The notes under the pieces were generated by a model that saw only the letters and a program-made list of their open reading frames with translations, did no database searches and was not told the DNA's origin. 64,000 bases of DNA, taken from NCBI GenBank assembly GCA_011192015.1, contig DUET01000085.1:20648-84647 (forward strand), written 5' to 3'. Within the stretch, counting starts at the first letter, position 1; each line of letters begins with the position of its first letter. The position numbers and the translations under genes were made by a program. Origin of the DNA: Anaerolineae bacterium (GTDB lineage: Bacteria; Chloroflexota; Anaerolineae; Anaerolineales; E44-bin32). Below, one piece after another: positions 26,993-51,253 of the stretch.

Positions 26993-27010
26993 GTTCTCTC
27001 TCCGCCTTCG

Positions 27011-27979: not shown

Positions 27980-28008
27980 GGGCGTTGTAACCTCCGTTTT
28001 TCATGCTT

Positions 28009-28067: not shown

Positions 28068-28076
28068 TGATCTTGT

Positions 28077-30362: not shown

Positions 30363-30376
30363 GGTTTCTCTCCTTC

Positions 30377-32377
30377 CTACTCCGCCTTGTTGCCGTAGGC
30401 GGCTTCAATGCGTTCTTCGAGCGGCAATTCGATGAGCTGTTCCATTCGCGCGTCGCCGCTCTGTCCCCACTTGGTGGGATCATATTCGGGCAGGCCGAGC
30501 GCAGCGCGCTTCTTGTCGATGTGAGCCAGCGAGCGACGTACGATCTCCTCGGGGTCGTTGATGAATTCCATCCTGCCACCCACCTTCGACTCCCAACCAT
30601 CGCTGATCATGCGATCGACAACTTCCACGCCACTCACAGGGCTCTTGTGACCCATGATGACGTAGGCGCCTGAAGCGACACAGTAGGTGCCGATGGAGAT
30701 GGCTTTCTCGCTCATCCACTCCGGCGCCATACCCACGGCCGGGATATCGCTGATGTCCTCACCCAAGCCGGTCTCCGTGGCCATTTCCGCCAGAACGGTC
30801 AGGATGCGGGAGTTGTCCACGCAGGAGCCCATGTGGAGTACGGGGGGCATGCCTACGGCTTCACAGACTTCACGCAACCCGGGGCCGGCGGCCTCGAAGG
30901 CCGCTTCCGGCGTCATGTAACCCTGCTTGGCGCTCGCGATGGCGCCGCATCCTGTCTCAACCACCAGGACGTCGTTCTTGAGGAACTCGGTGACCACATG
31001 CTGGTGCAGATGGTCGTGGCACACTCGGGCGTTGTTGCAGCCGATGTTGGCCACAACGCCGCGGATCCGCCCCGAAATGATGGCATCGTTCAGCGGGCGG
31101 AAGGAGCCGCGATGGGTGCCGCCGAGTGCATAGCGGATGTATTCATGCGAGAACCCGGGGATCAATTCGGCCTTGTCTTCCGGAATGCGGGTCTTCTTTC
31201 GCTCCGGGTAGCGATCCACAGCCTTGCGCACGATCTCCTTGGCGATCTCCATGGCGCGGTGCTCATCGAATTCCATGTGCGTGGCGCCGGTGATCTTGGC
31301 CTTGGGGGACGTGGTGATCAACTCGGTGTGGTAATTTTCGGCCAGCTTGACCACACCCTGCATGATGCACTGGATGTCCACCACCATCGCCTCGACGGCG
31401 CCGGTGAGGATGGCCAGTTCCTGCTGCAGGAAGTTGCCTGCCAGGGGCACACCCTGGCGCATGAGGGTCTCGTTGGCGGTGCAGCAGATCCCCGCCATGG
31501 TGATGCCCTCGGCTCCCTTGCTCTTGGCGTACTTGATCATCTCGGGATCTTGTGCCGCCGCCACGATCATTTCCGAGAGGGTGGGCTCGTGCCCGTGGAT
31601 GATGATGTTGACCTCATCGTCCTTGAGAACACCCAGGTTGGCCTCCGAGATGACCGGGGCCGGTGTTCCGAAGAGCACGTCGGATAGATCGGTGGCCATC
31701 ATCGATCCGCCCCAACCATCACCCAGGGCGGCTCGCATCGCATGGTCGAGGATGTGCTCCGCATCCTGGTCGTTGCCGATGTGGGTGCGGTGCATGATCT
31801 CCACGATCTCACGGTCGACATTGCGGGGTTCGATCCCCAGCTTCTTCCAGATCTCCTGGCGCTTGGGTGGCGCGCGGTCGAGATATTTGATCTTGCCTTC
31901 CACCTTGCCGAATTCACCCAATGCCGCCAAGGCCACATCCTTGGCAAGTTCCTCGGTGGTCTTCCCGTCCACAGCAACGTCCAGATAGCCTGCCATCTCA
32001 CGAAGCTTGGCTGGATCCTTGATGCTGTAATCGGGGGCATGACCCTCGGCAGCTGCCAAGAGGGTGTAGGCCAAGTCTCGGCCGTGATCGGAGTGGGCGG
32101 CTGCGCCAGCGGCCACCATGCGCGCGAAGTTGCGTGCTGCAACGGTCTCGCGTGTCGCTCCGCAAATTCCGGTTTGTCCCTCTTTCACCAAACGGCATGG
32201 CCCCATCCCACATACTTTGCAACAATAACCGTCTGAACCTATCGGACACGCTGCCATGCTGTCTGCACGCGAGAAGGAAGTTTCGATTCCTTCTTCTGTG
32301 GCTTGTGTCAGAAGTGTGATGGTGGCTTGATCCCGGCTGGCTTCTTCGGGAGTTCTCTCTTTTTTCGCCATTATCAT
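30377..32377 (-). CDS. acsA: Ni-dependent carbon monoxide dehydrogenase catalytic subunit
   Basis: 666 aa. N-terminal ACPIGSDGYCCKVCGMGPCRL (B/D cluster motif) and CooS-type body. Confidence 0.95.
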   Translation of the reverse strand: MIMAKKERTPEEASRDQATITLLTQATEEGIETSFSRADSMAACPIGSDGYCCKVCGMGPCRLVKEGQTGICGATRETVAARNFARMVAAGAAAHSDHGRDLAYTLLAAAEGHAPDYSIKDPAKLREMAGYLDVAVDGKTTEELAKDVALAALGEFGKVEGKIKYLDRAPPKRQEIWKKLGIEPRNVDREIVEIMHRTHIGNDQDAEHILDHAMRAALGDGWGGSMMATDLSDVLFGTPAPVISEANLGVLKDDEVNIIIHGHEPTLSEMIVAAAQDPEMIKYAKSKGAEGITMAGICCTANETLMRQGVPLAGNFLQQELAILTGAVEAMVVDIQCIMQGVVKLAENYHTELITTSPKAKITGATHMEFDEHRAMEIAKEIVRKAVDRYPERKKTRIPEDKAELIPGFSHEYIRYALGGTHRGSFRPLNDAIISGRIRGVVANIGCNNARVCHDHLHQHVVTEFLKNDVLVVETGCGAIASAKQGYMTPEAAFEAAGPGLREVCEAVGMPPVLHMGSCVDNSRILTVLAEMATETGLGEDISDIPAVGMAPEWMSEKAISIGTYCVASGAYVIMGHKSPVSGVEVVDRMISDGWESKVGGRMEFINDPEEIVRRSLAHIDKKRAALGLPEYDPTKWGQSGDARMEQLIELPLEERIEAAYGNKAE

Positions 32378-32408
32378 CGCTCCCTAATGGATTTTTGTAT
32401 ACCAGACA

Positions 32409-32714
32409 CTAAAGGTCGGCTGGGTCGGTTTTGGTCGCACGAACTCCAAGCTCGCCCCATTTCGGGTCGCGCTTGAGGGAATCCGCTTCGACCAGCACCG
32501 GTGTCCCCTCGGCGGTCGTGTAGCCGGCATCCGCCAGAGCCTTTTCGATGGCTTTGGGCTTCGCCTTGGCAGAATCATAGGAGATCATGATCTGCCTCCA
32601 TGCCGAACTCGCGAACACGTCCTCGACACCTTCCATGCTGGTCAGGATTTCCCTGATCTTCAACACGTGGTGATCGGCGAACATGTGCGGCATATCCAGG
32701 ACAAGCTTTTTCAT
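32409..32714 (-). CDS. HMA (heavy-metal-associated)-like small protein lacking the CxxC motif
   Basis: 101 aa. Length and pattern fit a beta-alpha-beta-beta-alpha-beta fold (KLVLDMPHMFADHHVLKIREILTSMEGVEDV...ISYD....IEKALADAGY). The usual GMxCxxC loop is replaced by MPHMFADHH. Confidence 0.55.
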   Translation of the reverse strand: MKKLVLDMPHMFADHHVLKIREILTSMEGVEDVFASSAWRQIMISYDSAKAKPKAIEKALADAGYTTAEGTPVLVEADSLKRDPKWGELGVRATKTDPADL

Positions 32715-32729
32715 TGCGCCTCTCTCCTT

Positions 32730-33533
32730 CTATTCCTCTGGATTGGCTTCATCTTCCATAAGACCATGCGGACGTAAGTAGGTTTCGGTTAGATCGTCTT
32801 TAATCTGGGTTTTCAGAGAGTCCTTCAGCACATTCCCTGAGACATGCATGAGTGTGTCGAAATACTCCTGCTCTTTGTACATGCTTGCCAGGCATGGGTA
32901 GTGATGATGCAGCAATCCGCCTGTTTCTAAAGCCTCATTTACTTCCACACCCACGAGATGATTTGCGACATAGCGCGTACACCCGCAGGCAGCGTCGCGC
33001 AGCACCTCCACCCTGGCTATCTTCCCCTCATCCACTTCGACATGCAAGCTGGGCTTACCGAAGTGCTCGACGAAGCGATGAATGATGGGATCGTCGTAAG
33101 CCCTAGCATTGGACCCTAGATTGTACTCAAGATTCCCCAAAGAGCAGAAGGGTTTGGGGAAAACGGAAAGGATTCCTTTTTCATCGAGCCATTGCTCGAG
33201 TTGAAGCGCCAATCCTGCAGGGAGCGCCGTGCTGCGATCGATGGGAGCAATCACGGCACGTGCTCCGCACATGTGCACGATGTCCGGCACAAGCTGCGCT
33301 AGGCCGGGGATCTCTCCCAAAGCCAGAACAAGATCCGCAGGTTCAAAGGAAGGAGGTAGGAACTCCTGCGGATCATCGACGATGGGCGGTAAGACTCGCG
33401 GTGCAACCCAACTCCCAATCTTCCAGTTGGGAGGTGCATGCTCGCGCAGGTTGTCTGTGATGCGTTGACCCCATTTCCCCTGAATGATGGTCAGAATGCG
33501 GAAGAGTTCCGCCTTGGATTGGCCACCGCTCAT
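32730..33533 (-). CDS. Conserved hypothetical protein, DUF166/COG1810-like (tentative), first gene of the acs cluster
   Basis: 267 aa with motifs PFCSL, AACGCTRYVA and HHHYPCLAS. Family assignment is from memory only and needs an HMM search. Confidence 0.5.
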   Translation of the reverse strand: MSGGQSKAELFRILTIIQGKWGQRITDNLREHAPPNWKIGSWVAPRVLPPIVDDPQEFLPPSFEPADLVLALGEIPGLAQLVPDIVHMCGARAVIAPIDRSTALPAGLALQLEQWLDEKGILSVFPKPFCSLGNLEYNLGSNARAYDDPIIHRFVEHFGKPSLHVEVDEGKIARVEVLRDAACGCTRYVANHLVGVEVNEALETGGLLHHHYPCLASMYKEQEYFDTLMHVSGNVLKDSLKTQIKDDLTETYLRPHGLMEDEANPEE

Positions 33534-33937
33534 ACAGACCCTGCTCCCACCGTCTCAAACAATTGCCTATAGGATGGCTTTCATGGCTGATTTAAGGCAG
33601 TGGGGAAAGTCACACTTTTCTTCGCGGGTTGTCCTTGTTGGTAGAAGCGCCGTGGCGCATGTTGTATGAGGGCCTCGATCTCCGGTTCTTTCTGCGTTTG
33701 AAATCTTCGCAGCAGGAATCATGGTTCGACCGATGCCTGCGTTTCTGTCCACGTCTTCAGGAGTTGGTTTCCGCGGGCTTGGTCTGGATGGGTGGCTGCA
33801 TAGATGGCGTCTATTTTTTACTATAGACATTCTCGATAGCGCTCGTGACGTATTTCACTACTCATACCTGGGGCATAGGCCATATATTGGATAGCAGTAA
33901 AGCGTTCTGACAATCATAGGAGCATTAGAGCATCGGC

Positions 33938-34240
33938 GTGGAAGATCTATCCCATTCGGACGCTGAGAGGCAAGCAGACATATTCAGCGTCCTGTCCAAT
34001 CCCAAGCGGATACTGATCTTGCGGGCGCTCGCCGAAGGGGAGTTGTCGGTGGGTGACGTTGCACAGATGGTGGATATCTCCATGCAGAACGCTTCGCATC
34101 ATTTAAGACTGATGAAGGATAAGGGCATCCTGATCCGACATCGCAAGGGGCAATCCATTTTCTACCAGATTGCTGCCCCGGAAATTGTGGCCGGCATCTT
34201 GGAGATGGACCCTGATCCGGCGGAATTGAAGGACGAATAA
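33938..34240 (+). CDS. ArsR/SmtB-family winged-helix transcriptional regulator (no Cys residues)
   Basis: 100 aa with FSVLSNPKRILILRALAEGELSVGDVAQMVDISMQNASHHLRLMKDKGIL. GTG start and weak RBS, so the start is uncertain. Confidence 0.8.
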   Translation: MEDLSHSDAERQADIFSVLSNPKRILILRALAEGELSVGDVAQMVDISMQNASHHLRLMKDKGILIRHRKGQSIFYQIAAPEIVAGILEMDPDPAELKDE

Positions 34241-34299
34241 GGCCAGGCAAAGCATTGGCCGCAGATCTGATCCCAATCGGATTCTAAAGGAGAGAAACA

Positions 34300-34554
34300 A
34301 TGTCAAGCGAAGATCTGTCCCAGGTTAGTGCCGCTAAAGTCGTCGACGCACGCGGCAGTGCTTGCCCGGGGCCCCTGCTGGAGGCCAAAAAGGGCATCGG
34401 TATGATCAAGGTTGGTGAGATCCTCGAGATCTGGTCTGGCGATGCTCGGACCAAAGAGGACATCCCCAAGTGGGCAGCTAAAGTAGGGCAGGAGTATATG
34501 GGCGCCCTCACCGCGGAAGGCTATGATCGCATCTTCCTGCGCCGCTCCAAGTAA
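34300..34554 (+). CDS. tusA: TusA/SirA-family sulfur carrier protein (copy 1)
   Basis: 84 aa with VDARGSACPGPLLEAKK (CPxP active-site motif). RBS AGGAGA lies 6 nt upstream. Confidence 0.9.
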   Translation: MSSEDLSQVSAAKVVDARGSACPGPLLEAKKGIGMIKVGEILEIWSGDARTKEDIPKWAAKVGQEYMGALTAEGYDRIFLRRSK

Positions 34555-34565
34555 AGGACATCGCT

Positions 34566-35018
34566 ATGGGACAAGAATCGAACGCCGGGGAGCCCAAAGT
34601 CCTCATCCTGGCAACGCTCTCCGGTGGCTATGCTGGCGCGGATTCTGTAGGTCAAGCGCATGCAGAATACGCCACCAACACGTACATTTTGCCAGTCGTC
34701 TGCCCAGCCATGTTCCCAGAGGAGTTCTATATCGAGTCGTTCGAGCGCGGCATCGATGCCATCCTGGTGATGTTTTCAGGAACGGATTGTCCCTACAAGG
34801 GGGGCGCTGAGCGAACGGCACAGATCATCAACAAAGTCTACCCGATGATGAAGGAACGTGGCATCGACACGCGACGCCTGCGTCTCGTGGCCATCTGCAC
34901 AGTCTGCACCAAACCCTTCCTTAAAGAGGTCACCCAGGTCAACGAGCTGTTGGACGAGATCGGGCACGTTGCTGCGGAGATCGCTGCAGGGCCTTCGGTG
35001 CAGGCTCCAGCTTCCTGA
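34566..35018 (+). CDS. Divergent MvhD/FlpD-like protein with a degenerate Cys pattern
   Basis: 150 aa that aligns to the three MvhD paralogs, but YCCHYCAY is replaced by ATLSGGYAG and AGCxxGxCH by SGTDCPY. PVVCPAM is retained. Confidence 0.7.
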   Translation: MGQESNAGEPKVLILATLSGGYAGADSVGQAHAEYATNTYILPVVCPAMFPEEFYIESFERGIDAILVMFSGTDCPYKGGAERTAQIINKVYPMMKERGIDTRRLRLVAICTVCTKPFLKEVTQVNELLDEIGHVAAEIAAGPSVQAPAS

Positions 35019-35034
35019 CAAGCGGAGGAGAAGC

Positions 35035-36387
35035 ATGGCTCCCAGAACAATTAAAGTTGACGCGCTTGTCGTCGGAGGCGGTATCGCAGGGATGCAATCC
35101 GCGCTCGACCTGGCCGATCAAGGCTATCAGGTGGCGCTGGTGGAGAAGCAGCCCAGTATCGGTGGCAAGATGATCGAGCTGAGCAAGGTCTTCCCAACCC
35201 TGGATTGTTGCAGCTGCATCACAACACCGAAGATGTCAGCCGTCGCTCATAACAGCAACATCCAACTCTTTACGTACTGCGATATTCAATCCGTTGACAA
35301 GCAGGGGGACGGGCGTTTCGTAGCGCAGGTCATCCAGAAGCCTCGCTACGTGGACATTGAAACATGCACGGCCTGCCGGCAATGTGAATACGCCTGCCCG
35401 ATCGACCTTCCACATCCCTTTGACCAGAATCTCGGCGTCCACCGTGCAATCTATGTTCCCTTCTCCACGGCCGTACCTCAGAAGGCATTGATCGACATCG
35501 ATAATTGCATTCTTTGCGGCAAGTGTGAGCGGGTGTGCCCGGTGGGATGTGTGGATTTCACACAACAACCGGAAGAGCTGGCCATCGAAGCCACGGCAAT
35601 CGTTCTGGCTACGGGCTTTGAGATCACCCCTACGGACGCCAAAGCAGAATATGGCGGTGGAAAACTGCTCAACGTGGTCAATGCCCTCACCGTCGAACGC
35701 TTGCTGGCACCAACGGGGCCGTATGGACATGTTCTTCGACCGTCTGATGGTAAGGAACCCGATTCGATCGCCTATATTCAGTGTGCGGGCTCCAGGGATA
35801 AATCCCTGGGTGTGGAATATTGCTCCCGCATCTGCTGCATGTATGCCATCAAGCAGTCGATGTTGATCTCCGGAGCGCTCCCCCTGGCGGACATCGCCAT
35901 CTACTACATGGACATCCGGACTTTCGGCAAAGGCTACGACCAGTTCTATCAGACGGCCAAAGCCATGGGTGTCCAATTCATCAAAGGAAAGGTTGCCAAA
36001 ATCACGGAGGACGAGAACCAGAATCCCATCGTGCGCGTGGAACTCATCGATGAGGGGTCCCAGGTCGTCGAGCGACAGCATGACATGGTTGTGCTCTCCG
36101 TGGGCATGGTGTCCAAGTATGATCCACGCACGATCTACGATGTGAACGTGGCAGGCGATGGTTTCGTAGACACACCGCTCACGAACGTCTCGCCCTGCGT
36201 AACCTCCCGACCAGGAGTCTTCGTATCCGGCTCGGCCGCTGGCCCCATGGACATCGTGGACAGCATCGTGATGGCAGGCGCCGCAGCTGCCGAAGCAGCT
36301 GCCTACATCCAGGCGACGGGACCGAATGGTCACGGCGGAGGCAGATCTATTGCCGCTGGTGAAGAGAAGGAACTTGCCCATGCCTGA
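35035..36387 (+). CDS. HdrA/QmoA-like FAD flavoprotein with inserted 2x[4Fe-4S] ferredoxin domain
   Basis: Start ATG 35035 after GGAGGAG. Contains VVGGGIAGMQSALDLADQG, FPTLDCCSC, CTACRQCEYACP, CILCGKCERVCP, IQCAGSRD..YCSRICCMYA. Confidence 0.9.
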   Translation: MAPRTIKVDALVVGGGIAGMQSALDLADQGYQVALVEKQPSIGGKMIELSKVFPTLDCCSCITTPKMSAVAHNSNIQLFTYCDIQSVDKQGDGRFVAQVIQKPRYVDIETCTACRQCEYACPIDLPHPFDQNLGVHRAIYVPFSTAVPQKALIDIDNCILCGKCERVCPVGCVDFTQQPEELAIEATAIVLATGFEITPTDAKAEYGGGKLLNVVNALTVERLLAPTGPYGHVLRPSDGKEPDSIAYIQCAGSRDKSLGVEYCSRICCMYAIKQSMLISGALPLADIAIYYMDIRTFGKGYDQFYQTAKAMGVQFIKGKVAKITEDENQNPIVRVELIDEGSQVVERQHDMVVLSVGMVSKYDPRTIYDVNVAGDGFVDTPLTNVSPCVTSRPGVFVSGSAAGPMDIVDSIVMAGAAAAEAAAYIQATGPNGHGGGRSIAAGEEKELAHA

Positions 36388-38443
36388 AAAACATGATTCC
36401 AAAGCCGCTGCAAAAGCAAAGTCCTCGCCCAAGGAAGAAGAAGTACGAATTGGTGCGTACACTTGCTACTGCGGAGGCAACATCAGTGACGTTGTCTACT
36501 GCGAGAAGGTCGCGGAAGCACTCGCCAAACTGCCGAATGTGGTGGTCTCGCGGACAGACATGTCCATGTGCTCCGACGCGGGTCAAGCCAAGATCGAGGA
36601 AGACATCCGCGAGCATGGTGTCAATCGAGTGGTGGTTGGCGCATGCGCGCCATCACTTCACGAGCAGACATTCCGCGGAACCGTTCAACGAGCAGGTCTG
36701 AATCCTTTCTTCTACCATCATGTGGGCCTTCGGGAGCAAGATAGCTGGGTCCATCATGACCGCGTCGCTGCAACCAAGAAGGCCATTCGCCTCATGTCAG
36801 CCGGCATTGCCAAGGCCAGGCTGCTGGAACCCCTGGAGCATATTCGCTTGTCGGCTGAAAAGCATGCACTCGTGATCGGCGGGGGTATCGCTGGATTGCG
36901 GGCTGCAAGGGATATCTCCAGGCGAGGCCTGAAGGTGACGCTCATCGAGCGGTCTCCCTTCCTGGGCGGCCACATGGCGCAACTGGAAAGCATCTTTCCC
37001 ACGGAGGAAGATGCCCGGACTGTGCTGCATGGTTTGATCGAGGAAGTGGCGGCAGATCCCAACATCACCCTGTATACGAGTTCCGAATTGACCGGTGTGC
37101 GCGGCTATGTGGGTGACTACCAGGTTCAGATCACGCAGCAATCACGCGGCGTCGATGAAGACGTTGCCGAAGAAGCCATGGCTGCTTGTACGCTGGAAGT
37201 GCCGGATGATTACAACTACGGTCTCACCCAACGCAAGGTCATCTACAAAGCCTATCCCGGATGCTACCCTCCAACCCCGGCCGTGGATTGGAAGAACATC
37301 CCTGATGGCAAGCTTGAGCTCAAGATGAATGGCAAGAAGATCAAGCTCGAGAACAAGCCCAAGACCATCGATGTCAAGGTTGGTGCCATCGTCATCGCAA
37401 CCGGTTTCACGCCCTACGAGCCTCGCAAGGGCGAATATGGTTACGGGGAGCTTCCGGAAGTTGTCACCATGCCGCAGTTCATCCGTCTCCTGGCGATGGC
37501 GCCGAAGGGTGAAGAGCTGGTCATCAACGAAAAACCTGTCCGCAACATCGGCTTCATCCACTGCGTGGGCAGCAGGCAGATCGATGATGTCCACGAACCT
37601 CAGCCGGACGGCGAAGTGAACAACTACTGCTCACGCGTGTGCTGTACGGCCACGCTGCATCTCGCCAACGACCTGCGGCATCGTTTCCCGGATTTGAACA
37701 TCTTCGATGTCTATGAGGATATCCGCACGTACGGGCGCGGGCACGAGGACTACTACATCGAAGCCTCGGAGAACCGCGTGGTGTTCCTACGCTTCCACGG
37801 CGAAGAGCCGCCGGAGGTGGTCGCCTCACCCGATGATGATGTCAGCCCTGTGCAGATCAAGCTCAAGGACTACCTCACCTGGGGAGAGGAAGTGGAAGTC
37901 CCTGCCGATCTGATCGTTCTTGCCGTGGGCATCATGCCCAATCCGGTGGACGATCTGATCAATCTTCTGAAGGTTTCGCCGGGGACGGACAGATTCCTGC
38001 TCGAGGTCCATCCCAAGCTGCGACCTGTGGAGACCGCCGTGCCGGGAATCGTCCTGGCAGGCACCGCGCAGGGACCGATGACGATCCAGGAGAGTTGCGC
38101 AGCAGCATCTGCGGCCGCCGCCAAAGTCAGCGTGCTCCTGAGCCAAGGTCTGGTGGAACTCGAACCTTATGTGGCGCGCGTCGATCTCGACCTTTGTAAA
38201 GGATCCGGCGAGTGCGTGGAAGTCTGCGCCTATGAGGATGCCATCACGCTTGAGAGCATGACCATCGGTGGGAAGGAAGTCAAGCGTGCCGTAGTAAGCC
38301 CGGCGAATTGTGCCGGCTGCGGGGCGTGCGTGAGTGCCTGTCCCAACCGAGCCATCGACCTTCAAGGATGGACGCTGGGGCAGTATCAATCCATGATCGA
38401 AGCCATCGTGGCGGAGATCCCCGCCGTGGAGATCGAGTCATGA
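36380..38443 (+). CDS. HdrA/QmoB-like flavoprotein (HdrA N-domain + FAD domain + C-terminal 2x[4Fe-4S])
   Basis: Start ATG 36380 overlaps the upstream stop by 8 nt. Contains IGAYTCYCGGNISD, VIGGGIAGLRAARD, FIHCVGSRQ..NYCSRVCC, CKGSGECVEVC, CAGCGACVSACP. Confidence 0.9.
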   Translation: MPEKHDSKAAAKAKSSPKEEEVRIGAYTCYCGGNISDVVYCEKVAEALAKLPNVVVSRTDMSMCSDAGQAKIEEDIREHGVNRVVVGACAPSLHEQTFRGTVQRAGLNPFFYHHVGLREQDSWVHHDRVAATKKAIRLMSAGIAKARLLEPLEHIRLSAEKHALVIGGGIAGLRAARDISRRGLKVTLIERSPFLGGHMAQLESIFPTEEDARTVLHGLIEEVAADPNITLYTSSELTGVRGYVGDYQVQITQQSRGVDEDVAEEAMAACTLEVPDDYNYGLTQRKVIYKAYPGCYPPTPAVDWKNIPDGKLELKMNGKKIKLENKPKTIDVKVGAIVIATGFTPYEPRKGEYGYGELPEVVTMPQFIRLLAMAPKGEELVINEKPVRNIGFIHCVGSRQIDDVHEPQPDGEVNNYCSRVCCTATLHLANDLRHRFPDLNIFDVYEDIRTYGRGHEDYYIEASENRVVFLRFHGEEPPEVVASPDDDVSPVQIKLKDYLTWGEEVEVPADLIVLAVGIMPNPVDDLINLLKVSPGTDRFLLEVHPKLRPVETAVPGIVLAGTAQGPMTIQESCAAASAAAAKVSVLLSQGLVELEPYVARVDLDLCKGSGECVEVCAYEDAITLESMTIGGKEVKRAVVSPANCAGCGACVSACPNRAIDLQGWTLGQYQSMIEAIVAEIPAVEIES

Positions 38444-38745
38444 CCGATAAGAAGGAAGACACCAAGAATCGAGCGGCCATGTTGAAGAGCTTGCGCGAGA
38501 AGCATAAGGAGACCGTGGAGAAAACCCAGGCTCTGCTCAAACACAATCAATCCATCCGCAAGCAGATTCGTCAGGCCATGCAATCGGGTCCCATGACGGT
38601 CCCCGAGGTAGCTGAAGCCACAGGCCTCCCCTCCGATCGGGTCCTATGGCACGTAACCGCCATGAAGAAATACGACCTCGTACGAGAGGTGGGTATGAGT
38701 GGTGAGTACTATCAGTATGAATTGGCACAAAAGGAGAATCAATGA
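38440..38745 (+). CDS. Small winged-helix-like protein, translationally coupled on both sides
   Basis: 101 aa (MTDKKEDTKNRAAMLKSLREKHKE...MTVPEVAEATGLPSDRVLWHVTAMKKYDLV). ATGA overlaps with both the upstream stop and the downstream start. Confidence 0.7.
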   Translation: MTDKKEDTKNRAAMLKSLREKHKETVEKTQALLKHNQSIRKQIRQAMQSGPMTVPEVAEATGLPSDRVLWHVTAMKKYDLVREVGMSGEYYQYELAQKENQ

Positions 38746-39914
38746 GCAACCGTGTCGATCCCTCCTTGATCAAAGAATTGAAAGAGTATGGGGCTGTCAA
38801 CATCGAGGCTTGCTTCAACTGCGGCAATTGCACGGCCATCTGCCCGTTGACGGATAGCAAGCACTCCTTCCCTCGGAACATGATCCGCCTCGTTCAGATG
38901 GGTTTTCGCAAGCGCATTATGAAAACCCCGGATCCATGGCTGTGCTATTACTGCGGGGATTGCAGTGATACCTGTCCCCGGGAAGCAGAGCCTGCGGAAA
39001 CCATGATGGCTTTACGCAGATGGCTTACAGCGCAGTACGACCGCTCGGGTCATGGCGCGAAGCTGTACACTTCCGAAAAAGCCGTGTGGAAGGCGATCCT
39101 GCAGTATTCCATGATCCCGGTGATCCTGCTCCTGATCTTCCATGGTCTTAAGGCCCTCGGCGTACCAGGGCTCGACAGCTTCGAAATCGTCACCGATCGT
39201 GTGGCGTTGAACGCCTTCGCACCCGTCTTCTGGGTCTGGGCGGTCGTGCTGATCGATTTCGTGCTGCTGGGCTCGCGCCTTGTGAGGAACATCGTGCATA
39301 TGTTCCAACTCGTGATGGGAGAGTTGGGCAGGAAAATACCCCTACGTATCTACATCCAGGAATTCAAGACCTTCCTGCTTCACACGATCACACAGAGACG
39401 TTGGTTGGATTGTGGCGAGGATCGGAAGCGATGGTTCAAGCATCTGCTCCTGATCTCCGGCTATGCAACCATGCTGATCTTGATCGTGGGCTTGTTGTGG
39501 TGGTTCCAGACGGATGAACTCTATCCGCTCTTCCACCCACAGCGCCTGTTGGGATACTACGCCACCGTCGTGCTGCTCTACGCCACAGGGGAGGCGTTGA
39601 TCGGTCGTTTGCGCAAGCGCGAACAAATCCATCGCTTCTCGCATCCGAGCGATTGGTTGTTCCCGGCATTCATCTTTGCAGGAACGGTCACCGGCATCTT
39701 GGTGCACATTTTCCGCTATGCCGGATGGCCCTGGCCGACCTATCTCATGTATGTCCTGCATGTCATGGTGATGATTTCCATGCTGGATACAGAAGTGGGT
39801 ATCGGGAAGTGGACGCATCTCTTCTATCGACCGCTGGCCATGTACTTGGAGAGGGTCAAGGAAAGGGCGGCAGAAGAGCCCGCGCCGGAACTTGCGCCAG
39901 TTGGAGCTGACTGA
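38742..39914 (+). CDS. QmoC-like membrane subunit: HdrC-type 2x[4Fe-4S] domain fused to a multi-TM (NarI/HdrE-like) domain
   Basis: 390 aa. N-terminal CFNCGNCTAICP and CYYCGDCSDTCP, then about 6 hydrophobic helices carrying several His (FHGL, HMFQL, LLHTI, KHLLL, LVHIF, LHVMV). Confidence 0.8.
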   Translation: MSNRVDPSLIKELKEYGAVNIEACFNCGNCTAICPLTDSKHSFPRNMIRLVQMGFRKRIMKTPDPWLCYYCGDCSDTCPREAEPAETMMALRRWLTAQYDRSGHGAKLYTSEKAVWKAILQYSMIPVILLLIFHGLKALGVPGLDSFEIVTDRVALNAFAPVFWVWAVVLIDFVLLGSRLVRNIVHMFQLVMGELGRKIPLRIYIQEFKTFLLHTITQRRWLDCGEDRKRWFKHLLLISGYATMLILIVGLLWWFQTDELYPLFHPQRLLGYYATVVLLYATGEALIGRLRKREQIHRFSHPSDWLFPAFIFAGTVTGILVHIFRYAGWPWPTYLMYVLHVMVMISMLDTEVGIGKWTHLFYRPLAMYLERVKERAAEEPAPELAPVGAD

Positions 39915-39959
39915 CTTCGAAAGAGACTGACGAATCCAATGTCTTAGAGGAGACACGAA

Positions 39960-40328
39960 ATGACCGATGAATTTCCCCCCATGGTGATCATCTGCAATCA
40001 CGGTGATGACCAGAGCGTCATGGCGGCATTGGTGATGGGGGCCGCTGCCGCAGCCACCGGTGAGAAAGTCCTCATGTTCTACCAGCCTGGAGCGGCGAAA
40101 GCTCTCGTGAAGGGCGAGTTGGAGAAACTGCAGGGTTCCAAGGGTCAGCCGGACCCGATCGATCTCTACGACTCGATCCTCACGCTCGATGGACGCTTCA
40201 TCCTGTGCGAATTAGGCCTGCCGATTCACGATATCAAGGAAGAAGAGCTGCGGGAAGGCGTTGAGGTGATGATGGCTTCGAGCTTCTTGTTCGAAGCCGA
40301 GGGGGCACATCTCACGTTCAGCTACTAG
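39960..40328 (+). CDS. DsrE/DsrF-like sulfurtransferase family protein (copy 1)
   Basis: 122 aa with MVIICNHGD..AALVMGAAAAATGEKVLMFYQPGAAKAL..FILCELG. RBS GAGGAG. Confidence 0.75.
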   Translation: MTDEFPPMVIICNHGDDQSVMAALVMGAAAAATGEKVLMFYQPGAAKALVKGELEKLQGSKGQPDPIDLYDSILTLDGRFILCELGLPIHDIKEEELREGVEVMMASSFLFEAEGAHLTFSY

Positions 40329-40374
40329 TCCGGAATCAAGGCAAATGATGCCAATCAAGAGGAGATGAAAGCCT

Positions 40375-40629
40375 ATGACAGATGCGATTACCCCCACGAA
40401 AACCTTGGACGTGAAGGGCAAGATTTGCCCGTATCCGGATATGGATACGATGACAACGCTCAAGAAAATGAAGAAGGGGGAAATCCTGGAGGTCCTGCTC
40501 GACTATCCGCTCTCTGTGGAACGCCTGCCGCGAAGCGCCAAGAAATGGGGACACAAGGTGCTTTCGATTGAGGCACTCGAGGGACCGAACCACCGCATTC
40601 TCATCGAAGCCTTTGGCTTGAAGGACTGA
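40375..40629 (+). CDS. tusA: TusA/SirA-family sulfur carrier protein (copy 2)
   Basis: 84 aa with LDVKGKICPYPDMDTMTTLKKMKKGEILEV (CPxP motif). Confidence 0.9.
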   Translation: MTDAITPTKTLDVKGKICPYPDMDTMTTLKKMKKGEILEVLLDYPLSVERLPRSAKKWGHKVLSIEALEGPNHRILIEAFGLKD

Positions 40630-40686
40630 CATGAGCCTGCGCATCTCTTTGAACGATGTAACCAAAACTCAAGGAGGAGACATCAA

Positions 40687-41733
40687 ATGACTCCGATCAT
40701 TCTTTCTGGACTTGGAATCGGGATTCTCTTTGGATTTGCGCTCCAAAGAGGAAGGTTCTGCATGAACTCTGCCTTCCGCGACATCGTCGTGTTGAAGGAT
40801 TACACCCTGATCAAGTCCGTCACCGTAGCGCTGCTGACAAGCATGGCCGGCTTTGCGATCATGGTCTTGACGAACACGATCACGATCAATCCCAAGCCGA
40901 TCCTCTGGGCTGGGAATCTGGTTGGCAGCTTCATCTTCGGCATCGGCATGGTCATCGCTGGGGGATGCGCCAGCGGCATCACCTATCGCGTCGGCGAGGG
41001 CATGGTGGGAGCGATGACGGCCGTCTTGGGTTTGATGATTACAGCAACCCTGACGGCAAGCGGATTTCTGGCGCCGGTCAAGAATTGGCTCCAGCAATGG
41101 AAGTACCCGACCGAAGGTGCCAGCGCAACCGTGGCCAGCTTGTTCGGCGTTGACTATCCCTACATGGCGTTGGGGATCGTGGTCGTGGCCGTTATCCTGT
41201 GGGTCATCTTGGCGCGCAGGAACAAGGAAGAGGCCGCCCCCAAGCAAGGTTCTCTGCTGAACCGCATCTTTAAGCAGGGTTGGGGCTGGCTGCCAACTGG
41301 AATCGCCATCGGTCTGGTCGGGATTGCAGCGTTTCCACTCTCCGCCGCCTCGGGCCGCAACTATCCCCTCGGGATCACATCAGGTTGGGTGAAGATCACA
41401 CAACTCGTTCTCCCCTCCGTTCCCACGGAGAATTCCTTGAAGTGGGACATGTGGTTGATCGTGGGGATCGTCGTTGGCGCCGCAGTGGCTGCGCTCATCG
41501 CCAAGGAGTTCAAATTCCGCGTTCCCAAGTGGACCGTTCTGATCCAGACCTTCTTTGGTGGCGCGTTGATGGGCTTCGGCGCTGTTTGCTCCACCGGGTG
41601 TAACATCGGCCATGTACTGAGCGGCATTCCCCAGCTCTCCATCGGGTCGCTGCTGGCGGGGCTGGCGATCGTGCTCGGATCCTGGCTTACGGCGTACTTG
41701 ATGTTCGTACGGCCCATGGCATCCGGAGATTAG
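40687..41733 (+). CDS. yeeE: YeeE/YedE-family sulfur-compound (thiosulfate-type) transporter
   Basis: 348 aa, about 9 hydrophobic segments. Three Cys-containing signature loops: QRGRFCMNSAFRD, AGGCASGITYR, AVCSTGCNIGH. RBS AGGAGG. Confidence 0.9.
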   Translation: MTPIILSGLGIGILFGFALQRGRFCMNSAFRDIVVLKDYTLIKSVTVALLTSMAGFAIMVLTNTITINPKPILWAGNLVGSFIFGIGMVIAGGCASGITYRVGEGMVGAMTAVLGLMITATLTASGFLAPVKNWLQQWKYPTEGASATVASLFGVDYPYMALGIVVVAVILWVILARRNKEEAAPKQGSLLNRIFKQGWGWLPTGIAIGLVGIAAFPLSAASGRNYPLGITSGWVKITQLVLPSVPTENSLKWDMWLIVGIVVGAAVAALIAKEFKFRVPKWTVLIQTFFGGALMGFGAVCSTGCNIGHVLSGIPQLSIGSLLAGLAIVLGSWLTAYLMFVRPMASGD

Positions 41734-41803
41734 TTTCCTAAATCCAAAGGATGTCGACCGGAAGGTATCGAGGTTGTACATCCGAAAATCGGGAGGATTC
41801 CCA

Positions 41804-42172
41804 ATGAGTGACAAGCAAGGTCCCATGGTGATCATCTGCAACAGCGATACCTCTGGTGTGATGCCGACCTTCATCCTCGGAGCATCCGGTATTGGCGTCG
41901 GGGAGGAAGTGATCCTTTTCTTCACCCCGGGCGGCTCCAAGGTTCTGCTGAAAGGCGAACTGGAAAAGTTCCAGGGGAAGAAAGGTCTACCCGATCCCGT
42001 AGAGCTCTTCAATACCATCCTGGATGAGGGTGGGAAGATCATCCTTTGTGAGCTCGCACTCGATAACAAGGACATCAAGAAGGAAGACCTGCGCGATGAC
42101 AGGATCGAAATCTTGAATGCGCCTTCCTTCCTGCTCGATGCACAGGGAGCAGGGATGACGTTCTCGTTCTAG
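41804..42172 (+). CDS. DsrE/DsrF-like sulfurtransferase family protein (copy 2)
   Basis: Start ATG 41804 after GGGAGG. 122 aa, colinear with copy 1 (MVIICNSDT..FILGASGIGVGEEVILFFTPGGSKVL..IILCELA). Confidence 0.75.
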   Translation: MSDKQGPMVIICNSDTSGVMPTFILGASGIGVGEEVILFFTPGGSKVLLKGELEKFQGKKGLPDPVELFNTILDEGGKIILCELALDNKDIKKEDLRDDRIEILNAPSFLLDAQGAGMTFSF

Positions 42173-42211
42173 TTCCAAGCATCAAACCGCAGCTCAACTT
42201 CAACTCGCACT

Positions 42212-42243
42212 ACGATGCCACTTCGTTCGCGGAGTGGCATCGT
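42212..42243 (+). terminator. Candidate intrinsic terminator closing the sulfur/Hdr cluster
   Basis: Perfect 11-bp inverted repeat ACGATGCCACT / AGTGGCATCGT with a 10-nt loop, 40 nt after the stop. Followed by AACTTTCATCTGTGTTTTC (T-rich). Confidence 0.65.
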
Positions 42244-42384
42244 AACTTTCATCTGTGTTTTCATGTGCGTATGATCCTTGCATGCATTGTTTCCTATGAT
42301 ATGATCGAAACGGGATCCCCGACCGAGTCATTTTACTGCTAAGGAGACCCCCATGTCTTCCAGCCTCGCTCGTTGAGGATTAGC

Positions 42385-44487
42385 ATGCCTTGGTCGAAAT
42401 GGAAGTTGACTCAGAGCCTCTCCTCTAGACTCATTCTCGGCTTTGTTGCAGCGATCATTGTCACCACGATCGCGGCGGGTGTTCCAGCCTATTGGATGAT
42501 CAGCAGGGAACTTGAACAGGAAGCCCAGGCGCGTTTGCAAGACGGCGTCCTGATCACCGACGTCTTGCTGGAAGCTGAAAAGACGCGCTTGGTCAACCTG
42601 GCCAGCCTGACCTCCCAACGCCCGACACTCCGAAACCTCCTTCGTGAGCGCAATACTTCGGCACTGGTTGAATACATTCAGGACTATCAAACCAGCGTTG
42701 ATCTCGATTTGCTCATTCTTTGTGACAATCAAGGTTTATCGATCCTCGGTGATGATCAAGTATGCCCATGGGGAGAATCCCCGACATCTCCTCGGAGCGC
42801 CTTTCACCTGCTACCCTTGCCGGCAGAGATACCAGCTTTCCTCGCAGGGCTGGAGATCAGGGACGAGAACACTGCGGAGGTTCTGGGTTATGTCACCGTC
42901 GGCAACTACTACGACGACACGTTTGCAACCCAGCTCTCTTCCCAAACAGGTTTCCATCAAAGCCTGATTCTGGGGGGAAAGCGATTTGTTACCACCATCG
43001 AGGGTTCACCGGAGAGCCTGGATTCGGAGACCATCCAAAGCGCAAGCGACAGCGGTAGCATCGAGGTGACTGAGCTGACGCTTGGAGGCGAGCGCTTTCT
43101 TACAGCGCTCCTCCCTCTGGAGGGTTGGTTTGGTGAAGTGATTGCGCTTGCGGAAGTTGGGTTATCGGTAAACTCAGTGGTTGCCGCGCAGCACCGCGCC
43201 TTGCTGACACTCAATGTGAGTACTTTGGGCATCATCGCGGTGGTTTCACTGCTGAGTCTTCTCTTCGCCCAACGTTTGACCTCGCCTCTCAGTGAGCTGA
43301 CAGAGGCGGCCCACAAGATCAGTCAGGGTGATTATTCGACTCCCATCCGCGGTCCGGATGATCCGATAGAGATCGCCACGTTGGCGCGCGCCCTCGAAGA
43401 GAGCCGAGCCAGTACGCATCGCTATCTACGTGATCTTTCGCAGGAGAAGGCCTGGTCTGAGACGTTGATCGAATCCATCAAAGAAGGAATCGTGACCGTC
43501 AATGCACAGGGTCTGATCACCTCCTTCAGTCAGGGAGCGGAACGCATTACGGGTTGGGAGCGTGCCGAAGCTCTGCATGCAACCATCGATGAGATTCTCC
43601 CCCTCGCGGAACTCAATGGATCGTTCGTGGACCACATTCCTGTTTCGGGAATCAAGCAGCAGATCAACGTGCTCACCAAGCAGGAGCGTCCGATCAGCCT
43701 GGCCGTCACGGCTACCAGAATCGCAACCCCCAAGGGGGAGGAAGAACAGGTGTTGGTGTTGCAGGACGTGACCCAGGAAGAGGCCCTTCAGAATCTACGT
43801 TCCTACTTTCTGGCCAACATTTCGCATGAGTTTCGCACGCCCCTTTCAGCCCTGAACGCCTCGGTTGAACTGCTGCTGGAGGATTTGGAGGACCTCTCTC
43901 AAGCCGAGATCGGGAACCTGCTGAACTCCATTCACATGAGCGTTTCCGGTTTACAAACCCTGATCGACAATCTGCTCGAAAGTTTGAGTATTGAGGCAGG
44001 TCGCTTCCGCATCCGCAGGCGCCGGACCGATTTCAATGAGATCCTGCTCGAGGCCGTTCGTGTGATGAAGCCCCTTCTGGAACGTCGTCAACAAACCCTG
44101 TCTCTGGATCAACCGGAACGCCTGCTGCGGATCAATGCCGATCCCACACGGCTCACACAGGTTTTGGTGAACCTGCTCTCGAATGCCAGTAAATACGGTC
44201 CTCTCGGGAAGCCTATTGATGTCAGCCTTGAGGAGATAGACGCGTATCAATTGAAAGTATCGGTGGCGGATCGCGGGCCAGGCATCCCCACCGATGAGCG
44301 CGAAAACCTGTTCAGCCGTTTCATCCGTTTGGACACGCAAGACAACACGCAGTATGGGATCGGGCTGGGCTTGTCCGTGGTCAAAGCCATTGTCGAAGAA
44401 CACAGCGGTAAGGTGGGCGTGGAAGAGCGCCCGGGTGGCGGATCGATCTTCTGGTTCACCCTACCGCTGGATAGCGAGGGCTCATGA
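42385..44487 (+). CDS. Membrane sensor histidine kinase (extracytoplasmic sensor domain, HAMP, PAS, HisKA, HATPase)
   Basis: Two TM segments flank a ~250-aa domain. Contains SHEFRTPL (H-box) and GIGLGLSVVKAIVEEHSG. Start is ATG 42385 (RBS GAGGA) or TTG 42373. Confidence 0.9.
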   Translation: MPWSKWKLTQSLSSRLILGFVAAIIVTTIAAGVPAYWMISRELEQEAQARLQDGVLITDVLLEAEKTRLVNLASLTSQRPTLRNLLRERNTSALVEYIQDYQTSVDLDLLILCDNQGLSILGDDQVCPWGESPTSPRSAFHLLPLPAEIPAFLAGLEIRDENTAEVLGYVTVGNYYDDTFATQLSSQTGFHQSLILGGKRFVTTIEGSPESLDSETIQSASDSGSIEVTELTLGGERFLTALLPLEGWFGEVIALAEVGLSVNSVVAAQHRALLTLNVSTLGIIAVVSLLSLLFAQRLTSPLSELTEAAHKISQGDYSTPIRGPDDPIEIATLARALEESRASTHRYLRDLSQEKAWSETLIESIKEGIVTVNAQGLITSFSQGAERITGWERAEALHATIDEILPLAELNGSFVDHIPVSGIKQQINVLTKQERPISLAVTATRIATPKGEEEQVLVLQDVTQEEALQNLRSYFLANISHEFRTPLSALNASVELLLEDLEDLSQAEIGNLLNSIHMSVSGLQTLIDNLLESLSIEAGRFRIRRRRTDFNEILLEAVRVMKPLLERRQQTLSLDQPERLLRINADPTRLTQVLVNLLSNASKYGPLGKPIDVSLEEIDAYQLKVSVADRGPGIPTDERENLFSRFIRLDTQDNTQYGIGLGLSVVKAIVEEHSGKVGVEERPGGGSIFWFTLPLDSEGS

Positions 44488-45176
44488 AGGCACTTGTTGT
44501 GGATGATGATCTGGCTCTGGCGGATGTTGTCTCCTTTACGATGCGCCGCTCCGGGTTCGATGTCATCCTGGCGCATGACGGTCAGGAGGCGTTGGATCGC
44601 TGGAAGGACGAATCGCCCGATCTCATCATCCTTGATCTCAATCTTCCGAAGATCGACGGGTTGAGTGTCTGCCAGCGGATCCGGGATCAAGCCGATACCC
44701 CCATCATCATTCTCAGCGTTCGGGGCGACGAGGACGATGTGGTGAAGGGATTGGAACTCGGTGCGGACGATTACATCGTCAAACCCTTCAGCCCCCGACA
44801 GCTTGTCGCTCGATCCGAGGCCTTGCTGCGTCGCGTGAAAGCGCAACCCGTTACCCCTGAACCCCTGACGGTCAGCGAGCTGACCCTGGATCCTTCGCGC
44901 AAACAGATTTATTGCAAAGGTGAACCGCTCGCCAAGCTTACGGGGCTCGAAACCCGATTGCTGGAGATCCTCATGCTGAATGAGGGGCAAGTGCTTACCA
45001 CAGAAACCTTGATCGACGCTGTTTGGGGATCCTCGGGAGGCGATCGCGCCATGCTCAAGCAGCTCGTCTATCGTCTTCGTAAGAAGATCGAGGCCTGCCC
45101 GTCTGAACCGTCTTATCTGATAACCGTTGCGGGTGTCGGTTATTCCCTTTCACCACACTCGACGGATTCCTCCTAA
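44484..45176 (+). CDS. OmpR/PhoB-family response regulator
   Basis: 230 aa with REC (VVDDDLALAD..DLIILDLNLPKIDG) plus a winged-helix trans_reg_C domain (LTLDPSRKQIYCKGEPLAKLTGLETRLLEIL). 4-nt overlap with the kinase gene. Confidence 0.95.
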   Translation: MKALVVDDDLALADVVSFTMRRSGFDVILAHDGQEALDRWKDESPDLIILDLNLPKIDGLSVCQRIRDQADTPIIILSVRGDEDDVVKGLELGADDYIVKPFSPRQLVARSEALLRRVKAQPVTPEPLTVSELTLDPSRKQIYCKGEPLAKLTGLETRLLEILMLNEGQVLTTETLIDAVWGSSGGDRAMLKQLVYRLRKKIEACPSEPSYLITVAGVGYSLSPHSTDSS

Positions 45177-46624: not shown

Positions 46625-46688
46625 CAAGACCTGGGATGCAGCAGCTGACAGATGATGCGGTCGGCTGCTGCATCCCGAGGGGGTCTTG
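46625..46688 (+). promoter_or_regulatory. Long GC-rich stem-loop directly upstream of the hydrogenase operon start
   Basis: Perfect 13-bp stem GGGATGCAGCAGC (46633-46645) / GCTGCTGCATCCC (46664-46676), extended by CAAGACC (46625-46631) / GGTCTTG (46682-46688). The putative RBS GAGGGGG (46677-46683) overlaps the 3' arm. Confidence 0.55.
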
Positions 46689-46693
46689 TCTTC

Positions 46694-47293: not shown

Positions 47294-47329
47294 GCCGAAC
47301 GAGAGGAATAACAACGACAAGGGACTGAG

Positions 47330-49393: not shown

Positions 49394-49394
49394 G

Positions 49395-51248: not shown

Positions 51249-51253
51249 GAGAG

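Follow-up and report, generated by a model that had tools for sequence, protein, structure and literature searches.

An eleven-gene cluster in a contig of an Anaerolineae bacterium (DUET01000085.1, assembly GCA_011192015.1) raises the question of what a predicted quinone-linked, HdrA-based electron-transfer complex does in an operon that also encodes TusA and DsrE sulfur carriers and a YeeE-family transporter. We addressed this question by computational analysis of the 64-kb window that holds the cluster (the whole stretch analyzed, positions 20,648 to 84,647 of the contig; coordinates are those of the window unless a related locus is named) and of related loci in other genomes. The cluster is a real, widespread module. 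The reading of its complex that we favor, tentatively and with less than even confidence, is a confurcating menaquinol and ferredoxin:protein-persulfide reductase that is possibly reversible.

As claimed in the original prediction, which was made from the sequence alone, the open reading frame (ORF) list of the window contains eleven codirectional ORFs on the plus strand from 33938 to 42172, with short gaps or overlaps between them. From 5′ to 3′, the coordinates show the first four genes to be 59, 11, and 16 nt apart, the next three junctions to overlap by 8, 4, and 4 nt, and the remaining gaps to measure 45, 46, 57, and 70 nt. Every domain family called at that time was recovered in Pfam and NCBIfam profile searches, and the genes and the closing hairpin are as follows.

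33938..34240, plus strand: ArsR/SmtB regulator, the first gene (Pfam HTH_5, 42 bits; NCBIfam HTH_metalloreg, 80 bits, cutoff 55)
34300..34554, plus strand: TusA1 sulfur carrier (PF01206, 59.3 bits; CPxP active-site Cys22)
34566..35018, plus strand: stand-alone MvhD/FlpD-like [2Fe-2S] electron-transfer protein of 150 aa (PF02662, 62.9 bits)
35035..36387, plus strand: HdrA-short, QmoA-like, 450 aa (HdrA2 model, 464 bits at positions 138-561)
36380..38443, plus strand: HdrA-long, QmoB-like without a fused MvhD, 687 aa (HdrA2 model, 575 bits, positions 1-643)
38440..38745, plus strand: small cysteine-free winged-helix protein of 101 aa (HTH_20, 25.8 bits, below cutoff)
38742..39914, plus strand: QmoC-like membrane anchor of 390 aa (NCBIfam qmoC, 191 bits over the full length, cutoff 300)
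39960..40328, plus strand: DsrEa, a DsrE-like carrier that opens the optional cassette (PF13686, 37.8 bits)
40375..40629, plus strand: TusA2, a YedF/YeeD-like transporter partner (PF01206, 70.4 bits)
40687..41733, plus strand: YeeE/TsuA-family transporter of 348 aa (PF04143, Sulf_transp, 280.8 bits)
41804..42172, plus strand: DsrEb, a DsrE-like carrier and the terminal core gene (weak similarity to NCBIfam DsrE2)
42211..42244, plus strand: terminator-like hairpin that closes the cluster (15-pair stem with 8 G-C pairs, 4-nt loop)

The hairpin, which had been called a strong terminator at 42212-42243, is the longest stem in 33400-42500; terminator-like hairpins overall were not above the shuffled background in number. 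The HdrA-short gene starts at ATG 35035 and not at the long-ORF GTG 34858, and either ATG 41804 or TTG 41774 is possible as the start of DsrEb. A promoter scan gave counts no better than those from shuffled sequence, and no structured RNA matched Rfam at gathering score anywhere in the window.

Related loci were collected by scanning a QmoC alignment against one genome per GTDB species, and the best 80 loci were read. Gene counts cover only informative loci, that is, those with enough flanking sequence, and gene order came from tblastn searches that used the eleven window proteins as queries. A relative of the QmoC-like protein is encoded in at least 575 GTDB species. The best 80 loci came almost entirely from Chloroflexota metagenome-assembled genomes (MAGs), with a few from Acidobacteriota, Elusimicrobiales, Phycisphaerae, and others; the nearest QmoC homologs were found in Anaerolineales MAGs at identities of up to 92%. 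The same gene order occurred in approximately 80 independent loci at QmoC identities of 45 to 70%, and this recurrence indicates that the cluster is more than a chance arrangement. In nearly every locus long enough, the order was ArsR-TusA-MvhD-HdrA-short-HdrA-long-winged-helix-QmoC-DsrE. TusA was present in 59 of 60 loci, MvhD in 58 of 60, and the two HdrA genes in 57 of 60, with ArsR upstream of TusA in 47 of 60; the winged-helix gene was found in 79 of 81 loci and a DsrE gene downstream of QmoC in 66 of 76. The linkage between Hdr and relay genes, whose absence from other genomes had been named beforehand as a ground for doubt, is strongly conserved. Since the flanks beyond this block were heterogeneous among related loci, the unit is self-contained.

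YeeE was found in 19 of 70 loci, every time with a TusA and a DsrE, and DsrEa was almost confined to loci with YeeE. In loci that lack these genes, the DsrE following QmoC was on average 59% identical to DsrEb and 42% identical to DsrEa, so that DsrEa-TusA2-YeeE constitutes a cassette that has been inserted after QmoC and ahead of the core DsrE. DsrEb is the sole further plus-strand ORF between this cassette and the terminator. These findings from 82 related loci show the cluster to be composite, consisting of an eight-gene core and an optional three-gene DsrE-TusA-YeeE cassette. The earlier view of the eleven genes as a single system is correct in that the linkage is real, but the system is not indivisible, given the limited distribution of the cassette. 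The location of the cassette inside the operon argues that the importer and the Hdr/Qmo complex work together.

HdrA-long aligned end to end, at 480 bits, with the solved HdrA of Methanothermococcus thermolithotrophicus (5odc_A). In this alignment, it keeps the N-terminal cluster cysteines C29, C31, C64, and C89 and also those of the thioredoxin-reductase-domain cluster and of the two clusters in the C-terminal ferredoxin domain. It has lost the DCxxC motif that holds Cys197, with EEDARTV in the place of NDCSIC in 5odc_A, and also the cluster motifs of the inserted ferredoxin domain, which has two lone cysteines, C270 (95% conserved) and C295 (89%). HdrA-short matched solved HdrA chains at 385 to 394 bits over residues 141-563, beginning at HdrA residue 141 to 145. 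It consists of the thioredoxin-reductase-type FAD domain, an inserted ferredoxin domain for two [4Fe-4S] clusters, and a DCCSC motif equivalent to that of Cys197, without the N- and C-terminal HdrA domains. Cys58 and Cys61, the eight ferredoxin cysteines, and C250, C263, C267, and C268 of HdrA-short are 100% conserved in 59 orthologs, and C59 is 85% conserved. The cluster features of both proteins are conserved across approximately 60 orthologs.

In the crystal structure considered by Chadwick et al. (2022), one HdrA supplies Cys197 to complete the other HdrA's N-terminal cluster. For this reason, where tandem HdrA genes have lost Cys197 and the N-terminal domain in complementary fashion, they were inferred to encode asymmetric heterodimers (PMC9012536). 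The HdrA pair here shows exactly this complementarity, which predicts that HdrA-short and HdrA-long form an asymmetric heterodimer. HdrA-long stops at 643 of the HdrA2 model, and the MvhD gene product aligns to the C-terminal MvhD region of that model (642-775). In the published electron path, electrons pass from MvhD by way of the ferredoxin domain at the C terminus to the bifurcating FAD, from which one branch leads via the thioredoxin-reductase-domain cluster to HdrC and the other reaches ferredoxin via the N-terminal cluster plus the inserted ferredoxin domain (PMC9012536). Judged by cofactor ligands and domains, the HdrA pair, MvhD, and QmoC together carry every element of one HdrA bifurcation unit. 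Full-length HdrA homology at 385 to 480 bits, the cluster ligands, the complementarity of Cys197 and the N-terminal domain (PMC9012536), and MvhD as an adaptor are shared with MvhADG-HdrABC of methanogens and with the tandem or fused asymmetric HdrA pairs of anaerobic methanotrophic archaea (ANME) and acetogens. In contrast to MvhADG-HdrABC, no hydrogenase is encoded with the cluster and there is no HdrB, and therefore no heterodisulfide site. In one related locus (L001, 6215-9705), we also observed that both hdrA genes are split by frame shifts and stops located off cysteines, which are probably assembly errors.

Residues 8-367 of the QmoC-like protein aligned to positions 4-358 of the 360 positions of the qmoC model. 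Eight iron-sulfur cysteines together with C224, H234, H340, and H359 are invariant in 83 sequences, and H297 is 98% conserved; C224 lies within an Arg/Lys-rich loop. An AlphaFold2 (AF2) model placed six long helices after residue 112. Foldseek matched the N-terminal domain to HdrC with a probability of 1.0, and for the membrane domain it gave only a weak PDB match, to NarI (3ir5_C; E=2, probability 0.51). Pfam gave no NarI family match for the protein. These results point to an HdrC-like 2 × [4Fe-4S] domain fused to a multihelix, His-rich membrane domain. A search by sequence for a solved Qmo structure found none, with matches only to methanogen Hdr subunits. Because a membrane anchor follows the HdrC-like domain in one polypeptide, we infer that the high-potential arm of the bifurcation unit ends in the menaquinone pool via QmoC. 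The original suggestion of a membrane-anchored bifurcating or confurcating module is supported by the cofactor complement, which is that of a flavin-based bifurcating HdrA unit on a quinone-interacting anchor; protein-bound sulfur is a putative redox substrate.

The winged-helix gene between HdrA-long and QmoC overlaps both neighbors by 4 nt. An AF2 model built with 55 homologs had a predicted local distance difference test (pLDDT) score of 76.8, with values above 90 for residues 11-40, and showed a confident helical hairpin followed by a helix-turn-helix. Foldseek against the PDB returned nothing at E<0.3 and only generic winged-helix matches. A DsrD-like activator and a known subunit were each considered as identities for this protein, and neither had a supporting structural match in the PDB. 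We regard the protein as a candidate additional subunit or autoregulator.

TusA and DsrE bracket the Hdr/Qmo genes in nearly all related loci, and each has an invariant active-site cysteine. The active-site motif is CPGP in TusA1 and CPYP in TusA2, and the CPxP cysteine is kept in all orthologs (Cys22 of TusA1, 100% conserved in 59 orthologs; Cys18 of TusA2, 100%). In the DsrE-like proteins, both of 122 aa, C82 and C12 of DsrEb are 100% and 98% conserved, respectively, and C83 of DsrEa is 96% conserved. DsrE3C of Hyphomicrobium denitrificans has 125 aa and an essential Cys84 (PMC11094781), and the DsrE-like proteins here resemble it in these two features, size and cysteine position.

TusA2 is encoded directly upstream of the transporter. 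TsuA-type YeeE proteins have 330 to 350 aa, nine helices, three conserved cysteines, and an adjacent TusA-like partner; this partner, TsuB, cleaves thiosulfate to a persulfide and sulfite, and related transporters import zero-valent sulfur (PMC11582611). The transporter of the window is alike in its length of 348 aa, its adjacent TusA-like partner, and its three conserved cysteines (C25, C94, and C305), and it has multiple hydrophobic segments. It scored 300.6 bits against the Spirochaeta-type TsuA model (cutoff 400), 190.2 bits against another TsuA model (cutoff 645), and 126 bits against the YedE/FdhT model. The best NCBIfam match of TusA2 was to short YedF (71.4 bits, cutoff 79), with 26.9 bits for TsuB (cutoff 147.5).

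In the reductase that we tentatively propose, the high-potential branch would run through QmoC to menaquinone instead of through HdrB to a heterodisulfide, and the third port of the complex would be sulfane sulfur held as a persulfide on TusA/DsrE. Sulfur would enter the cell, in loci with the YeeE-TusA2-DsrEa cassette as thiosulfate or zero-valent sulfur that becomes a TusA persulfide. From TusA it would pass by way of DsrE to the complex, which would reduce it to H2S. Menaquinol and reduced ferredoxin would be the electron donors, and the reaction may also run in reverse. Such a complex might provide a fermentative or acetogenic Anaerolineales cell with a quinone-linked sulfur electron sink. 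We favor the reductive direction because an importer of oxidized sulfur species is added in about a quarter of the loci and H2S needs none. The ferredoxin couple lies at approximately -450 mV and the S0/HS- couple at approximately -270 mV. Menaquinol is at approximately -75 mV, and for canonical Qmo a confurcation of menaquinol with a low-potential donor has been proposed (PMC3333476). The mean potential of menaquinol and ferredoxin, approximately -260 mV, is near that of the S0/HS- couple; on this potential arithmetic, confurcation would be both necessary and sufficient.

A wider claim is that the module represents a new kind of flavin-based bifurcating enzyme with inorganic or protein-bound sulfur as its mid-potential substrate, reversibly converting sulfide and TusA/DsrE-bound persulfide while electrons are split or merged between menaquinone and ferredoxin. 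We consider this claim doubtful as it stands. If it were true, widespread Chloroflexota would gain low-potential reductant for CO2 fixation from sulfide or, alternatively, a quinone-coupled respiration of sulfane sulfur without Dsr, Apr, Psr, Sqr, or sHdr.

We searched for enzymes that could complete a known sulfur pathway. No apr, sat, or dsr gene was found among the scanned ORFs of the window, and the Apr, Sat, and Dsr families were likewise absent from the 126 nearest flanking ORFs of related loci and from the Pfam-annotated contexts of L001 and L002. Signature motifs of ATP sulfurylase, which we take to be GRDHAG and QxRNPxHxxH, did not turn up when the window and all loci were translated in six frames, which is a weak test. 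The Pfam and NCBIfam scans also bore out the initial observation that no sat, apr, or dsr gene, HdrB-type CCG subunit, or lipoate-binding protein lies by the cluster.

Several observations weigh against the persulfide reductase that we propose. We identified no site for two-electron S-S chemistry, and the cluster is without an HdrB/HdrD CCG domain, a molybdopterin subunit, or a rhodanese. The catalytic sulfur site had been described from the start as not obvious, and none was found in the cluster proteins; the only catalytic candidates are the conserved cysteines C270/C295 of HdrA-long, C59 of HdrA-short, C224 of QmoC, and C12 of DsrEb. None of the 83 loci contains a gene fusion between the relay and Hdr/Qmo proteins. 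The ArsR regulator has no cysteine in its translation, unlike known persulfide-sensing ArsR-type repressors. Furthermore, in three Acidobacteriota loci (L079, L080, and L083, at approximately 5200-8000), the HdrA-short ortholog is a protein of approximately 934 aa with a GltD/NfnB-like NAD(P)H module (Fer4_20 plus Pyr_redox_2), and these loci keep TusA, MvhD, HdrA-long, and QmoC. Such an NAD(P)H module could make the complex redox complete without sulfur.

This last finding bears on the alternative that the complex is bifurcating but independent of sulfur. A conventional donor of mid potential, for example a hydrogenase, formate dehydrogenase, or NAD(P)H, would then be coupled to menaquinone and ferredoxin, docking at MvhD or taking the place of a domain, and TusA and DsrE would serve in cofactor supply (Fe-S or sulfur), thiol-based regulation, or assembly. 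FixABCX/EtfABCX offers a functional analogy only: it has a mid-potential donor, a quinone as the high-potential acceptor, and ferredoxin as the low-potential acceptor, as predicted here, but Etf and HdrA are unrelated families, and the donor here is not NADH but is sulfur based or not known. No cofactor is missing for an HdrA bifurcation unit that has a quinone branch, the lack of a sulfur-active catalytic subunit and of relay-Hdr fusions is as expected if sulfur is not the substrate, and two hydrogenase clusters lie 4 to 17 kb downstream in the window. However, TusA and DsrE are kept across phyla with invariant active-site cysteines, the YeeE-TusA-DsrE cassette has repeatedly been inserted inside the operon, which is hard to explain for incidental carriers, and the Chloroflexota version encodes no donor module. 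Because the Acidobacteriota loci insert an NAD(P)H module in HdrA-short, we retain sulfur independence as a serious rival that is only slightly less probable than the reductase.

Running the persulfide chemistry in the oxidative direction is improbable. Oxidation of sulfide or of a protein thiol/persulfide (approximately -270 mV) would here be bifurcated to menaquinone and ferredoxin, supplying low-potential electrons to the neighboring Wood-Ljungdahl pathway while TusA and DsrE remove the sulfane product. The architecture and the potential arithmetic fit this direction equally well, and genes for carbon monoxide dehydrogenase (CODH) and acetyl-CoA synthase (ACS) directly adjoin the cluster. 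Yet 27% of loci add an importer of oxidized sulfur species that H2S would not need, nothing is encoded that would dispose of sulfane sulfur or oxidize it further, and the problem of the catalytic site is the same as for the reductase.

We also compared the module with canonical QmoABC, the quinone-interacting membrane-bound oxidoreductase that green sulfur bacteria and sulfate reducers possess. According to Ramos et al., an MvhD-like domain is fused to QmoB, and AprAB has QmoA as its partner (PMC3333476). In both systems, a pair of HdrA-like flavoproteins encoded in tandem is accompanied by an MvhD-type module and by a QmoC with an HdrC-like iron-sulfur domain and a membrane domain, which in canonical QmoC is of the cytochrome b type. 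In contrast to canonical QmoABC, MvhD here is a separate gene ahead of both hdrA genes and not the C-terminal domain of QmoB, an extra winged-helix gene lies between the QmoB-like gene and QmoC, and TusA and DsrE bracket the operon in place of linkage to aprBA/sat. In type II Qmo, described by Neukirchen et al. in 2023, qmoAB are nearer to typical hdrA, QmoC forms a separate type, and Apr/Dsr may or may not be present (PMC10504309). The strong HdrA similarity and the QmoC score below cutoff here fit that published description, the comparison being by description only. TusA is not mentioned in the type II Qmo paper or in the supplements examined (PMC10504309). The term "novel system" used in the original prediction accordingly applies to the conserved relay linkage, but the Qmo part falls in the published type II category (PMC10504309). 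That the module is an ordinary QmoABC feeding an AprAB encoded elsewhere, for sulfate reduction or sulfite oxidation, is very unlikely. Full-length homology of QmoC to the qmoC model, the tandem HdrA-like genes with an MvhD module, and the occurrence of type II Qmo in two sulfate reducers (PMC10504309) agree with it, but QmoC reaches only 191 bits against an equivalog cutoff of 300, the searches described above returned no apr, sat, or dsr gene, and in a family with QmoC relatives in at least 575 species the conserved partners are TusA and DsrE.

Two other known systems share parts with the module. Like sHdr-LbpA, it ties an Hdr-like complex to TusA and to soluble DsrE3-size carriers of approximately 120 to 125 aa with a conserved cysteine near position 82 to 84; the neighborhood often holds ArsR-type regulators and YeeE-like importers as well (PMC11094781, PMC11582611). 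It differs from sHdr-LbpA in having no sHdrB1/B2, no sHdrC pairs, and no lipoate-binding protein, in having two full HdrA-type proteins with ferredoxin domains and a membrane QmoC anchor, and in its anaerobic Wood-Ljungdahl context and an ArsR without sensing cysteines. We rejected an sHdr identity because HdrB and LbpA are absent from the eleven proteins. An adjacent YeeE-family transporter, TusA-like protein, and DsrE-like protein (39960-41733 here) are also found in YTD and TsuA/TsuB systems, of which YTD clusters contain two to three conserved hypothetical genes, chp1-3 (PMC12998232). A full YTD cluster was rejected because these chp genes are absent from the plus strand between 39960 and the terminator. 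In contrast to YTD and TsuA/TsuB, the transporter and TusA2 score below the TsuA/TsuB cutoffs, and the cassette is optional and embedded in a Qmo-like operon.

A gene of the LysR family immediately follows the module in 58 of 83 related loci, including L001 (13672-14616), and is the one very frequent neighbor beyond the block. It matches the NCBIfam model for a selenium metabolism-associated LysR at 235 bits in L001, and the window has a copy 20 kb from the cluster (62354-63277, minus strand) that scores 252.7 bits against a cutoff of 250. This LysR may be the real regulator of the module; besides the lead ArsR-type gene, the winged-helix protein and the recurrently adjacent LysR are both possible regulators. 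No in-frame TGA aligned to any cysteine across the 83 loci, where stops were gene ends or assembly errors, and selenocysteine variants were not observed. A selenium-handling module, in which a YedE/YedF-type importer and a DsrE-like protein deliver selenium, Hdr/Qmo gives reducing power, and the selenium LysR takes part, is the least probable reading that we considered: the short YedF match of TusA2, the LysR matches, and selenoprotein members elsewhere in the HdrA, MvhD, DsrE-like, and YeeE/YedE families (PMC9312934) speak for it, but the transporter matches the TsuA models far better than the YedE/FdhT model, orthologs have no TGA at cysteine positions, selD, selA, and selB were not seen in the window or in recurrent flank families, and 73% of loci have the core module without the transporter.

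All parts of the module come from known families, and both Hdr-like complexes with TusA/DsrE relays (sHdr) and quinone-linked HdrA complexes (Qmo) are already known. A full-text literature search found no published description of this operon. What is new is the conserved combination of an asymmetric HdrA pair, a split MvhD, a winged-helix gene, a QmoC anchor, TusA/DsrE brackets, and an optional YeeE cassette, with no Apr, Dsr, or HdrB. Anaerolineae belong to the most abundant bacteria of anoxic sediments, the subsurface, and digesters, and their energy metabolism is poorly resolved. With a QmoC relative in at least 575 species and the same operon in nearly all of the 80 loci, the module represents a widespread, uncharacterized respiratory or bifurcating unit. 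Should sulfur be the substrate, the module would be a new enzyme class in the cryptic sulfur cycle that is invisible to surveys of dsr, apr, sox, psr, sqr, and sHdr markers, and it would provide a function for type II Qmo. If sulfur is not the substrate, the module would offer a clean natural asymmetric HdrA heterodimer on the quinone pool, with bearing on the mechanism of canonical Qmo in sulfate reducers.

The surroundings of the cluster in the window are rich in redox genes. Upstream, on the minus strand at 19198-33533, lies a complete carbonyl-branch Wood-Ljungdahl cluster, which also includes genes for malic enzyme, a pterin-binding methyltransferase, a CooC-like ATPase, RACo, and two CdhD-type corrinoid proteins. 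The features located individually in this region are as follows.

28077-30362, minus strand: ACS, in the Wood-Ljungdahl cluster
30377-32377, minus strand: CODH, in the Wood-Ljungdahl cluster
32409-32714, minus strand: small HMA/copper-chaperone-like protein
32730-33533, minus strand: DUF166/DfsP-like protein

Three further minus-strand genes (3222-7775, 10225-14835, and 15690-18881) encode proteins of 1517, 1536, and 1063 aa in which HdrA-type FAD/ferredoxin parts are joined to a GltD/NfnB-like NAD(P)H module (Fer4_20 plus Pyr_redox_2). These genes adjoin those for MetF, the methylenetetrahydrofolate reductase (MTHFR), and a MetV-like protein at 949-2676 on the same strand. The HdrA-GltD fusions and MetFV may constitute a bifurcating methylene-tetrahydrofolate reductase system like the MetFV-Hdr complexes of acetogens.

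We also recorded genes that recur downstream of the module in related loci. After LysR, radical-SAM, NifX-like, and MrpORP-like genes and a VKOR-domain gene were found less often. Directly after DsrE and on its strand, L016, L017, L019, L021, L049, and approximately four other loci encode a protein of 391 aa whose C-terminal domain is VKOR (vitamin K epoxide reductase). This VKOR-domain protein, a quinone-linked thiol oxidoreductase followed by radical-SAM and NifX-like genes, is another thiol-quinone link beside the module. At 5 to 10 kb downstream in L002, L011, L024, L029, L039, L071, and others, we observed a recurrent orp-like set that consists of MinD/ParA-type ATPases with ferredoxin inserts and proteins with NifX/MrpORP C-terminal domains, and this set may be unrelated to the module.

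Downstream of the cluster in the window, two genes at 42373-45176 on the plus strand, which overlap by 4 nt and start 129 nt after the terminator, encode a histidine kinase of 704 aa and a response regulator of 230 aa; this pair is not conserved in related loci. A membrane-bound, complex-I-like hydrogenase of the group 4 type with Mrp-type antiporter subunits is encoded at 46652-54377 on the plus strand, and a gene for a HycI-type protease comes next at 54672-55352. At 55349-59322 on the plus strand, in a sulfhydrogenase-like layout, lie the genes for a soluble [NiFe] hydrogenase of four subunits, among them Fer4_22 and NAD-binding ones.

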